A DNA stretch of 64,000 nucleotides from Rickettsiales bacterium (GTDB lineage: Bacteria > Pseudomonadota > Alphaproteobacteria > Rickettsiales > UBA6187). Below the pieces are notes generated by a model. That model was not told where the DNA came from. It saw only the letters and a program-made list of their open reading frames with translations, and searched no databases. This document shows, one piece after another, positions 14,661 to 17,276 of the stretch; position 1 is the first letter of the stretch; each line of letters opens with the position of its first letter. Made by a program: the position numbers and the translations under genes. Where the stretch lies: the NCBI GenBank assembly GCA_040507985.1, contig JBEVNR010000016.1, forward strand, positions 3,509-67,508. The letters run 5' to 3'.

Positions 14661-14689
14661 TTGAAATTCCGTTAATTTTTTGTTATGAT
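14661..14689 (+). promoter_or_regulatory. sigma70-like promoter for lipoprotein array A
   Basis: TTGAAA (14661-14666), a 17-nt spacer, then TATGAT (14684-14689), about 27 nt upstream of the A1 start. Confidence 0.45.
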
Positions 14690-14715
14690 TCGATGCGTTG
14701 ACACGGTAGAAACGT

Positions 14716-15501
14716 ATGAAAATCATCTATGGCGCGCGAGCGTTTCTCTGCGCGTTGTTTTTTGTGGCGGGATGCGACACCACGCCGGATTCGTTTCTGG
14801 TGCGCGACGATAATTTTCGCGACTCTCCGTGGAAATACGTCAAGGAACGCCTTACCGCCCGTCCGCTGAAAACGACCCTGTTCGGAGCGCCCAGCAGCGT
14901 AAACCAAGGGTTTGAAAACGAGAAATTTTCCGACAGCATGCGCTGGATGCGCAACGGCACGCTGGAATCGCACCGCTACGAGCTTATCGAACGAAAGAAG
15001 CGCCAAAATAAGGGCGAAGACGATTCGACGGACGACGACGCGGACGTCGGCTCCGGCTACCAAAACGGAGCGGCGGGCGCCGTGATCGACCCCGCGACCG
15101 GACGCTACGAGACGGCTCCGCAACGCCCCCAAGCCTATGCCTACGGAGGCCCGGGCTATAGCGCGGAACAGCCCTATCCGGGCCAATATTATCCCCCGCC
15201 ACGCGGCGGCGCGCAAGATTTATATACCAACCGCTACGAAACCGCCCCGCAGGCCATGGCGCCGCAGCCGCGCGGAAAATATGACGTCAGCAGCGACAAT
15301 CCGCGCGCCAGCCCGTACGGCATGGGGTTTGAGGACGGATGTAAAACCTATATGGGCGCCGTCGGCGCGGGAACGTGGCGGTTGCTGAAGCCTCGCTACA
15401 ACATGAACCTTATGGGAGAAAAAATGAACGTGGAATATGTGCGCGGCTTTAACGACGCCGCGTCGTTCTGCACCTTTAGAACGGATTGGGATCCGCATTG
15501 A
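14716..15501 (+). CDS. Cys-motif lipoprotein family member A1 (261 aa, with Tyr/Pro/Gly-rich linker)
   Basis: Signal peptide and lipobox FFVAGC. Motif 1 is YGMGFEDGCKTY and motif 2 is EYVRGFNDAASFC. The stop overlaps the A2 start (TGATG). Confidence 0.8.
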   Translation: MKIIYGARAFLCALFFVAGCDTTPDSFLVRDDNFRDSPWKYVKERLTARPLKTTLFGAPSSVNQGFENEKFSDSMRWMRNGTLESHRYELIERKKRQNKGEDDSTDDDADVGSGYQNGAAGAVIDPATGRYETAPQRPQAYAYGGPGYSAEQPYPGQYYPPPRGGAQDLYTNRYETAPQAMAPQPRGKYDVSSDNPRASPYGMGFEDGCKTYMGAVGAGTWRLLKPRYNMNLMGEKMNVEYVRGFNDAASFCTFRTDWDPH

Positions 15502-15866
15502 TGCGTCTTTCGTTCCGTTTCGCCGCCTATGTCGCGCTTATATTTTCGGCGGCCTGCTCGCGCATTCCCGGCGTAAAAATGCCCCCGCATTTGCACGGGG
15601 GAAAATTGCCCGTCGTGCGGGAATGGGAAGACGCTTACGGCGAGAAATACGACGAATACCGAAAAGGTTACGAAGACGGATGCGAAAGCGGATTTTCCGC
15701 CTACTCTCCCCAATTTTACATGACGCTAAATACCTGGAAGCAAGACTGGCGGCTGGCCAACGGGCAAGGCTACGGAACCTATTATAAAAGCTGGAAGGAC
15801 GCCTACGCCTATTGCTCGGCCATGGGATTGATGTTTAACCAGCATACGTGGGGCAACCATAGGTAA
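15501..15866 (+). CDS. Cys-motif lipoprotein family member A2 (121 aa)
   Basis: MRLSFRFAAYVALIFSAAC lipobox. Motifs YRKGYEDGCESG and YYKSWKDAYAYC. Confidence 0.8.
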   Translation: MRLSFRFAAYVALIFSAACSRIPGVKMPPHLHGGKLPVVREWEDAYGEKYDEYRKGYEDGCESGFSAYSPQFYMTLNTWKQDWRLANGQGYGTYYKSWKDAYAYCSAMGLMFNQHTWGNHR

Positions 15867-15870
15867 CGCC

Positions 15871-16215
15871 ATGCAACGCTTCACGGTTATTTTCGTTTTA
15901 TGCGCGCTCGCCGCCGGATGCAACGGAGGGTTCAAGCCTCGCGTGTCCAGCCCGTGGCACGCCGATTTTTTGGAAAACGGGCCTCCTAACTCGCCCACCA
16001 TGTTTCGGCAAGGATGGCACGACGGTTGCCAGACGGCGACAAGCGCCACCGCCAACTCGTTTCAGCGCATGTTTTACGACTATAAGCAGGATTATTACCT
16101 ATTGCACGAACAGCCGGACCCGACGAAACGCACGCAATATTACTTAGGGTGGAAGCAAGCCTTCACCTATTGCCACCGCTACATCTTCCAGTATTTACGT
16201 CGGAGGTACATGTGA
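15871..16215 (+). CDS. Cys-motif lipoprotein family member A3 (114 aa)
   Basis: MQRFTVIFVLCALAAGC lipobox. Motifs FRQGWHDGCQTA and YYLGWKQAFTYCHRY. Confidence 0.8.
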   Translation: MQRFTVIFVLCALAAGCNGGFKPRVSSPWHADFLENGPPNSPTMFRQGWHDGCQTATSATANSFQRMFYDYKQDYYLLHEQPDPTKRTQYYLGWKQAFTYCHRYIFQYLRRRYM

Positions 16216-16616
16216 GGGCGAAGGCGATGGTGGCGACGCTCGCGCCGCTTGCGCTTAGCGGATGCTACGGCGCGTTTTTAAGCAAGCCGGCGGGGCTGGA
16301 CAGCCTTTCCGTCAAGCAAATGCATGCGCCCAAGCCGCCGAATTTGGGCGGCCCTCCCGACGACGCGCCGGAAGTCTATAAATTGGGGTGGAACGACGGA
16401 TGCAAAACCGGCATGGGAACGATGGTGACGGGCGCCTATAAGGCGTTTTATAAATTTACCGTCCATTCCGAACTGTACGGCGACCCCATGTATTATAACG
16501 TGTGGAAGGATGCCTACACCTATTGCCGGCAACGCGCGTTTAAATGGTCGTGGGAGCCGTGGGACAGAAAATATTACAATCCGGGCAATCTATGCCTGAT
16601 ATGTCCGGAAGATTAA
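16212..16616 (+). CDS. Cys-motif lipoprotein family member A4 (about 134 aa)
   Basis: GTG at 16212 overlaps the A3 stop (GTGA); ATG 16227 is an alternative start. Lipobox LALSGC. Motifs YKLGWNDGCKTG and YYNVWKDAYTYCRQ. Confidence 0.75.
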   Translation: MRAKAMVATLAPLALSGCYGAFLSKPAGLDSLSVKQMHAPKPPNLGGPPDDAPEVYKLGWNDGCKTGMGTMVTGAYKAFYKFTVHSELYGDPMYYNVWKDAYTYCRQRAFKWSWEPWDRKYYNPGNLCLICPED

Positions 16617-16631
16617 CGCAGGGAGAATGAC

Positions 16632-17276
16632 GTGACGCCTCGCCTTTCCATCGTGGTCCCGTTGCTGCTTGCCGCGCTTGGCGCGGGCGGCGGCTGCACG
16701 AAAAACAAGTTATACGGCTTGCCGGCTTTCGCAAAGCCTCTGCCGTGGATATTCGACCAAATGCCGAAAGACACGACCCCCACCTACCAATACGGCTGGA
16801 AGCACGGGTGCGAATCCGGCCTGGCGACGATGACCAACAGCTTGTACCATAGCACCTATCGGTTTAAGATAGATCCGGCGATGCGCCATCACGCCCTTGT
16901 CACCGATCCCGCCGGACGCCGCAGCGACGCGCCCGAATATTACAAGGCGTGGAAGGACGCCTACGAATATTGTCGCGCCTACGCCTACGGCCGGGTGCGC
17001 GAGGCGGACGAACGCACCACCTTGCCAAACAACGTTCCCACCACTCTTGGCACCGTGATGGGCGCGCATAACTGGAACACGCGCGGATTGCTGAACATGT
17101 GGGGACCCGGTACCGACGGCCAGTTGCTCGAGAATTTCGGGCAAATCGCCGGCGACTCCGACATCGGCGACGGCGGACACATGAATTGGGATTTTTCCGA
17201 CGGATATGCGATCGGCGGCGGCATGTACGACGTCATGCATTGGGATCTGCGACCGAAGGAAGGGTTCGTGTGGTAA
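16632..17276 (+). CDS. Cys-motif lipoprotein family member A5 (214 aa, long C-terminal tail)
   Basis: GTG start preceded by gggaga. Signal peptide ..LLLAALGAGGGC. Motifs YQYGWKHGCESG and YYKAWKDAYEYCRAY. Confidence 0.75.
   Translation: MTPRLSIVVPLLLAALGAGGGCTKNKLYGLPAFAKPLPWIFDQMPKDTTPTYQYGWKHGCESGLATMTNSLYHSTYRFKIDPAMRHHALVTDPAGRRSDAPEYYKAWKDAYEYCRAYAYGRVREADERTTLPNNVPTTLGTVMGAHNWNTRGLLNMWGPGTDGQLLENFGQIAGDSDIGDGGHMNWDFSDGYAIGGGMYDVMHWDLRPKEGFVW

Follow-up and report, generated by a model that had tools for sequence, protein, structure and literature searches.

Predicted two-cysteine lipoproteins in arrays of five fixed classes in uncultured Rickettsiales-like bacteria

The DNA analyzed here (hereafter the window) is a 64,000-nucleotide (nt) stretch, positions 3,509–67,508, of contig JBEVNR010000016.1 (assembly GCA_040507985.1), from a metagenome-assembled genome (MAG) labeled "Rickettsiales bacterium" by NCBI; it is ordinary chromosome, with purD, serS, guaB, and rtcB among its genes. 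Five short open reading frames (ORFs), A1 to A5, lie head to tail on the + strand, flanked on one side by a gene for a PhaC-like hydrolase and on the other by a convergent virB8-virB9-virB10 islet, and encode paralogous proteins with predicted lipoprotein signal peptides (array A, Table 1). An earlier note, made from the sequence alone, had described this array with its junctions and a second set of five such genes further along (array B, 35227–36980), giving ten paralogues in all, and each of these elements is present in the sequence: the A1 stop overlaps the A2 start as TGATG (15499–15503), the A3 stop overlaps the A4 start as GTGA (16212–16215), and the coordinates leave gaps of 4 nt (A2/A3) and 15 nt (A4/A5) at the remaining junctions. 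The ten proteins belong to a family that is new to the libraries searched, and whose members fall into five ancient classes held in a fixed set and a fixed order.

The five genes of array A are real and are coding on the + strand. The G+C content at third codon positions (GC3) of the + frames is 0.64–0.77, like that of virB10, serS, and IMPDH, and the ORFs antisense to them have the opposite (wrong) codon-position pattern; differences from the orthologues of one comparison locus (L003) fall mostly at the third codon position (17/9/50 for A3), and orthologous low-GC loci are without long antisense ORFs. Orthologous cassettes are moreover present in contigs of widely differing GC content. Among the outcomes that the earlier note had named as undoing its proposal are that the antisense ORFs are the expressed genes and that the ORFs and motifs are not conserved in relatives; the first is ruled out by codon-position composition, the substitution pattern, and the low-GC loci, and the second did not materialize, the profile search described below having recovered hundreds of sequence clusters, and orthologous cassettes being present in other contigs.

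All ten window proteins carry a lipobox and both halves of the bipartite two-cysteine signature on which the proposal had been built. The invariant columns of the ten-protein alignment are the start Met, the Gly-Cys of motif 1, and a Tyr and the Cys of motif 2 (Y...C), and the core signature reads, ungapped over 56 residues, [YF]xxGWxDGCE[ST]G...N..YK.FY.F.QD....N..YY.AW.DA..YCR.Y. The two cysteines are spaced by exactly 41 residues in 110 of 153 proteins (nearly all exhaustive-search matches), with a longer spacing (54) in A5; the stretch that links the lipid Cys with motif 1 spans ~24–40 residues in classes 2–5, mostly 27–32. A lipobox-like site, counted with a relaxed pattern and a hydrophobicity filter (strict form [LVI][ASTVI][GAS]-C), was found in 340 of 364 members (93%), and family members are predicted to be exported and lipid-modified at the lipobox Cys. 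Because Asp is rare at the +2 position (14 of the 340), the outer membrane is the suggested location for most members under the E. coli +2 rule.

Both domain cysteines are retained in 384 of 389 members. Three of the five exceptions are shortened at contig ends; the two that are full-length (L010 of class 2 and L052 of class 5) have lost both cysteines together (C1 to L, C2 to G), and across the sequences the pair is coupled. In an AlphaFold2 model of A5 (m648904127438), a core of residues ~30–125 is placed with a predicted local distance difference test (pLDDT) score above 90 and is followed by a Gly-rich, ~80-residue tail (R..LPN, WGPG, and NWDFS motifs) that scores below 50 and is disordered. 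The core domain is helical in this model (helices at 38–43, 50–65, 70–75, 82–85, and 101–124), with C60 and C114 sitting in the two long, confident helices. The paired loss and the placement of both cysteines in long helices support an intramolecular disulfide between the Cys of DGC and that of YC, and strengthen an idea first raised in the earlier note. The two full-length proteins without the pair (L010, 3834–4178; L052, 9863–10426) are otherwise intact natural "disulfide-free" variants, which could guide mutagenesis.

An exhaustive HMMER profile search of 1.84 billion protein representatives returned 597 clusters (50% identity) with the cutoff set at E ≤ 1e-3 and 270 with it set at E ≤ 1e-10; the clusters checked had no informative name, "hypothetical protein" being the most that was given. 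When each GTDB species was scanned through a single genome, 102 loci were confirmed, of which 77 were retained, nearly all of them in MAGs, with one record not labeled as a MAG (isolate AM-377-L16). The labels are Rickettsiales, Rickettsiaceae, or Alphaproteobacteria, with no cultured or named genus, and the sources, judged by isolate names, appear to be lake, marine, groundwater, sea-ice, and engineered environments. At least 12 MAGs hold 2–4 loci each.

The family is found almost only in arrays. Exactly five domains are present in 57 of the 68 arrays lying clear of contig ends, and more than five in none of the 68. Hidden Markov models (HMMs) trained position by position on 16 A-type arrays resolve five classes, each with its own linker length and its own conserved C-terminus (Table 1), and class order by these models is 1-2-3-4-5 in 31 loci. 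Array B of the window is a circular permutation, 5-1-2-3-4, and its orthologue at L061 reads alike. The claim of five paralogous lipoproteins per array therefore holds, and goes further than first stated, the five being ancient, position-specific classes of a fixed set. Where a cassette has been duplicated as a whole, each copy keeps all five classes (window arrays A and B; L009 with L061), and two MAGs carry split sets, in JAJNBL01 as 1-2-3 (L065) plus a two-gene locus (L070) and in JBKCHH01 as 1-2-3 (L069) plus a two-gene locus (L037); class calls in the two-gene loci are partly of low margin, L037 reading 4?-5 and L070 reading 4?-2?.

In a marine lineage, classes 2 and 3 are fused, following gene order, into one ORF of 206–234 aa, as read directly in at least seven loci (L048, L051, L054, L057, L058, L063, and L075) and seen also in P0098 and P0115; ORF sizes at L049 are the same as in these loci. 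Owing to this fusion, the marine four-ORF arrays still hold five domains. The class 4 Cys pair of the lineage is also altered, with C-K-G/T-I/V-F/Y-(Q)-C replacing N-L-C-x-x-C-P. The region concerned lies at about 8.4–10.4 kb in each of the seven loci, except for L051, where it is at 3.7–5.7 kb. Over the arrays, a median of 56 nt, approximately one signal peptide, separates a stop codon from the lipobox Cys that follows it, so that genes abut or overlap as translational coupling would predict.

Within array A, A1 has a divergent core (GFEDGC ... SFC) together with a long low-complexity linker, and carries DWDPH, which is conserved, at its C-terminus; orthologues of A1 are found in P0007/L003 and in L001. 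Class 3 is the most conserved class, A3 being 84% identical to its L003 orthologue (see also P0001). The sigma-70-like promoter claimed for the array is present as a pattern upstream of A1, with a TG-extended −10 element and 10 of 12 consensus matches, yet a scan of the region found 3 promoter-like sites against 2.0 expected by chance from shuffling, and it therefore stands as a pattern match, a promoter candidate only. Beyond A5, the palindrome in the spacer to virB10 may form a bidirectional terminator hairpin; it lacks a T run and was for that reason passed over by the terminator scan.

Array B opens with B1, whose ATG is preceded by the Shine–Dalgarno sequence AGGAGA, and the start of B4 is probably the ATG that overlaps the B3 stop as ATGA. 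A gene for an Rrf2-family regulator starts 21 nt after B5 and may be co-transcribed with the array; an Rrf2-family gene likewise follows the orthologous B-type array in L061 (10749–11171). Directly 5′ of array B lies a 526-aa ORF without a Pfam match and without a homologue in any comparison locus.

Table 1. Coordinates of the two arrays and neighboring features in the window, and conserved C-termini of the five classes; array genes are given as predicted lipoproteins.
Feature	Position in window	Strand	Description
Sigma-70-like promoter pattern (candidate)	14661–14689	+	TTGAAA-17-TATGAT, upstream of A1
A1	14716–15501	+	261 aa, class 1; lipobox VAGC|D
A2	15501–15866	+	121 aa, class 2; lipobox SAAC|S; C-terminus ...HTWGNHR
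A3	15871–16215	+	114 aa, class 3; lipobox AAGC|N; C-terminus ...QYLRRRYM
A4	16212–16616	+	134 aa from GTG, class 4; lipobox LSGC|Y; C-terminal CxxC NLCLICPED
A5	16632–17276	+	214 aa, class 5; lipobox GGGC|T; ends EGFVW
GC-rich palindrome	17321–17335		GCCGGC-GTA-GCCGGC, in 91-nt spacer between convergent A5 and virB10 stops
virB8-virB9-virB10 islet	17368–20443	−	Pfam VirB8, CagX, TrbI
RDD-family gene	20597–21202		Upstream of virB8
NHL-repeat + von Willebrand factor A protein	21403–24930	+	1175 aa
Spore-coat-protein-U (SCPU) domain ORF	31071–32048	−	
526-aa ORF	33399–34979	+	
B1	35227–35682	+	151 aa, class-5-like, short WGAPS tail; opens array B
B2	35691–36017	+	108 aa, class-1-like; start refined to 35691
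B3	36021–36377	+	118 aa, class-2-like; class call of low margin
B4	36374–36697	+	107 aa, class 3; C-terminus ...QYHRKSFSN
B5	36699–36980	+	93 aa, class 4 without CxxC tail; closes array B
Rrf2-family regulator gene	37002–37436	+	
Class 1 conserved C-terminus			...DW[ED]xH
Class 2 conserved C-terminus			...HG[LMW]GN[WH]R
Class 3 conserved C-terminus			...QYLRRxx[LIFM]
Class 4 conserved C-terminus			...N[LI]CxxCP[NQ]E
Class 5 conserved C-terminus			Gly-rich ~80-residue tail with R..LPN, WGPG, and DFS motifs; often an aromatic end

The family lies outside the curated libraries, as the earlier note had surmised. The ten window proteins have no Pfam or NCBIfam family match above noise at E ≤ 1, and 150 family members compared with Pfam at E ≤ 10 gave only scattered noise, with nothing relevant; PADLOC and PHROGs models returned zero matches at E ≤ 0.1, a search of PDB sequences with the family profile gave no match (best E 0.16), and Foldseek comparison of the A5 model with the PDB gave nothing below E = 1.8. 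The profile built from the ten sequences likewise matched no known family, word-indexed searches yielded a few matches (every one unnamed), and literature searches on paralogous lipoproteins in Rickettsiales and on DUF2799 found nothing. By sequence, by profile, and by the fold comparison made (against the PDB; fold libraries are incomplete), the family has no tie to anything described.

The only resemblance that had been put forward was to DUF2799 (PF10973), lipoproteins of Vibrio, Acinetobacter, Rhizobium, and Hoeflea whose function is likewise unassigned, and this likeness did not survive an explicit comparison. Genuine DUF2799 genes were recovered and then verified with Pfam (E 1e-18 to 1e-25), the proteins scoring 66–88 bits where the PF10973 gathering score is 25 bits, and the comparison set was enlarged to 120 proteins. 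The two families do share a loose pattern (aromatic-x3-G-x2-D-G ... Y-C; W...G..DG..G and ...YC in DUF2799), both consist of small exported lipoproteins with conserved cysteines, and hhalign of the full-length profiles returned a probability of 83% (E 9e-6). Signal peptides and lipoboxes, however, stood at the head of the aligned region and were the source of this score; a comparison restricted to the mature domains (354 sequences on one side, 120 on the other) gave 0.9% (E 0.058), close to the 0.1% of a reversed-sequence control, whereas our internal positive control, which paired class 1 with class 5 as the most divergent two of the family, gave 96.3% (E 1.4e-9). Against PF10973, the 150 family members yield no match, even with the cutoff relaxed to E ≤ 10. 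DUF2799 proteins differ further in having four conserved cysteines rather than two, at other positions and followed by a coiled-coil tail, and in being the single ORF of their kind in the five plasmid loci read. The collapse of the score once signal peptides were removed reduces the likeness to a short motif for which homology is not demonstrable; membership of DUF2799 is rejected, and we regard the idea that the family is a divergent branch of it as very improbable.

The surroundings of the arrays offer no constant companion. Clustering of flanking ORFs within 5 kb of ~85 arrays found no family that accompanies more than 10 of them; recurring flanking genes reflect housekeeping synteny in subsets (thiL, nusB, and rib genes), and pilin-like and CpaF neighbors are sporadic. 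With no partner gene conserved, the cassette is a self-contained unit. This bears on the proximity of array A to the virB islet, for which the earlier note had suggested a survey of co-occurrence with virB genes, and on the reading in which the family would serve the Rickettsiales rvh type IV secretion system (T4SS) as accessory lipoproteins of the outer membrane, VirB7-like partners of VirB9 and VirB10. VirB7 proteins as a rule rank smallest among the T4SS scaffold components and are lipoproteins able to form disulfides, with the Rickettsia candidate gene directly upstream of virB8b (PMC2653234). Array A ends only 91 nt from the convergent virB10 stop, and the islet has no VirB7-like small lipoprotein ORF between virB8 and the RDD-family gene upstream, both points in favor of this reading. 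When the window VirB8, VirB9, and VirB10 were searched in ~80 comparison loci, a virB9 homologue was indeed found ~5–6 kb from the array in three marine loci (L058, L063, and L075), but in only those three, and no VirB8 or VirB10 homologue was found in any flank; the nearest orthologous cassettes are followed by trpG/trpD (L001) or adjoin mlaE/mlaF (L007). No T4SS family is among the Pfam matches of the window proteins or the 150 members. The adjacency to virB8-10 is local to this genome, a general link to the T4SS is rejected, and we consider the T4SS reading improbable. The known VirB7-type proteins (VirB7, TraN, ComB7, and Rickettsia RP288/RvhB7) resemble the family as small lipoproteins with stabilizing Cys disulfides, and one array does adjoin virB8-10 in the window; they are, however, much smaller than the 93–261-aa proteins described here, which come in sets of five, are unlinked to vir genes almost everywhere and, in array A, lie on the strand opposite to the virB genes, convergent with virB10 rather than upstream of virB8/virB9, so that membership of the VirB7 group by size and position is also rejected.

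The islet itself stands alone, with no virB11 or virD4 after virB10, and fits the scattered rvh layout of Rickettsiales. Just past it lies the gene of the NHL-repeat and von Willebrand factor A protein, which may be a surface or adhesion protein, and further on an SCPU domain ORF; the SCPU family is linked to secreted pilus-like fibers. Two arrangements at other loci are recorded here as observations. In L007 (6641–8740; an uncultured Rickettsiales MAG), mlaE, a gene for an ABC ATPase where mlaF would be expected, and a highly charged ORF of 146 aa immediately precede an A-type cassette, an arrangement seen only there and in the near-duplicate L008. In five loci (for instance L076, 11054–11458, − strand), a Cys-/Tyr-rich secreted ORF of ~130–150 aa with an internal repeat (…YAKC…QQCNY…YNQC…) is encoded on the opposite strand, ~23 nt downstream of the array; whereas it may have nothing to do with the array, it may also be another partner.

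The neighborhood also bears on the idea that the genes encode lipoproteins conferring immunity to an antibacterial toxin in the periplasm, as tandem genes of the Tli/Tsi type do. Tandem paralogous genes for small periplasmic lipoproteins are typical of immunity islands, which is the appeal of this reading; the conserved neighbors nevertheless include no toxin or secretion gene, the PADLOC models find no match, and the classes are ancient, strictly ordered, under strong purifying selection, and not variable in copy number. We give this explanation hardly any credence.

The combination of a fixed set, duplication by whole cassettes, split sets, the 2+3 fusion, tight packing, and class-specific termini is the pattern to be expected of a hetero-oligomeric complex, and the best explanation, which we hold to be on balance probable, is that the five classes assemble into one such complex in the periplasm. 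Array A is one copy of this conserved, self-contained operon with one member per class, and array B a second, circularly permuted copy. Each protein would be exported, lipid-anchored, and tethered to the membrane (by the E. coli +2 rule mostly the outer one) through a linker of ~27–32 residues, leading to a compact all-helical domain in which one disulfide would staple the two long helices together; one subunit of each class would enter each complex, with the class-specific C-terminal tails acting as docking or functional elements. The role of the complex would probably be a structural or scaffolding one in the cell envelope of this clade of uncultured Rickettsiales-like Alphaproteobacteria. 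We infer a structural envelope function in preference to others because there is no enzyme-like motif and no ligand-transport neighbor, and because purifying selection is strong; physical assembly, stoichiometry, lipidation, membrane location, and biological role of the family are likewise what we infer.

Several considerations weigh against this explanation. The E. coli +2 rule behind the outer-membrane assignment may not hold in these bacteria; an AlphaFold single-chain model of the 2+3 fusion P0098 reached a predicted template modeling score (pTM) of 0.48, with its second domain lacking alignment depth; and the small arrays of 1–4 members in some genomes mean that not every copy is a full set, unless subunits are shared between loci. 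Sequential action, or five related substrates, would equally preserve order and co-occurrence, and the role itself is a guess, made with no enzyme motif, informative neighbor, or structural match to guide it. In a rival reading, the five are independent paralogues, each binding its own, related ligand or partner (for instance envelope glycans, peptidoglycan fragments, or host molecules) and sharing an operon solely for the sake of co-regulation. Aromatic and polar residues (W, Y, D, E, N, Q, K, and R) abound at the invariant positions, as they do on many ligand-binding surfaces, the 1–4-member arrays exist, and assembly is conjectural, the P0098 model being uninformative. Independent binders, however, usually vary in copy number; here the count of five is kept in most complete arrays and never exceeded, order is fixed, class-specific C-termini are conserved, the 2+3 fusion recurs in the marine lineage, and duplication occurs at the level of the whole cassette. 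We therefore judge independent binding unlikely.

The hetero-oligomeric complex has a bolder form, in which it would be a previously unknown hetero-pentameric envelope lipoprotein machine of environmental Rickettsiales-like bacteria, present in several paralogous copies per genome; this we regard as possible though doubtful. Were it true, such a machine might replace unrelated lipoproteins that act as an outer membrane–peptidoglycan tether, an outer-membrane protein chaperone, or a secretion-system anchor, and if the complex does replace a known envelope function, it would show that a basic problem in building the Gram-negative cell can be solved in another way.

Research treats Rickettsiales-like bacteria both as intracellular parasites and as kin of the ancestor of mitochondria, and for most of their environmental diversity there are only MAGs, with many genes unannotated. 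The rigid architecture of the arrays points to a multi-subunit envelope component that databases do not describe. With names for the family and for each of the five classes, hundreds of "hypothetical proteins" could be annotated and the lineage would gain a marker, and the family is a defined target for structural work on what may be a new small, disulfide-stapled helical fold. It is striking and widespread in uncultured Rickettsiales-like bacteria, and bears on no specific open question as yet.

We know of no described system in which five ancient classes of paralogous lipoproteins make up a fixed cassette. The small Tims of the mitochondrial intermembrane space (Tim8/9/10/12/13), which are small, paralogous, helical, disulfide-stapled proteins that form hetero-oligomers in a compartment akin to the periplasm, offer a likeness by analogy only; they carry twin CX3C motifs, lack a lipid anchor, share no sequence similarity with the family, and are not evidence of relatedness. 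Closer in gene arrangement are the Lpl (DUF576) lipoproteins of Staphylococcus aureus and the Mlp lipoproteins of Borrelia, recent tandem expansions whose copy number varies between strains. These too are encoded by several paralogous lipoprotein genes set head to tail on one strand, but they have no sequence match to the family described here, which instead consists of five old classes whose number, order, and tails are fixed across many MAGs.

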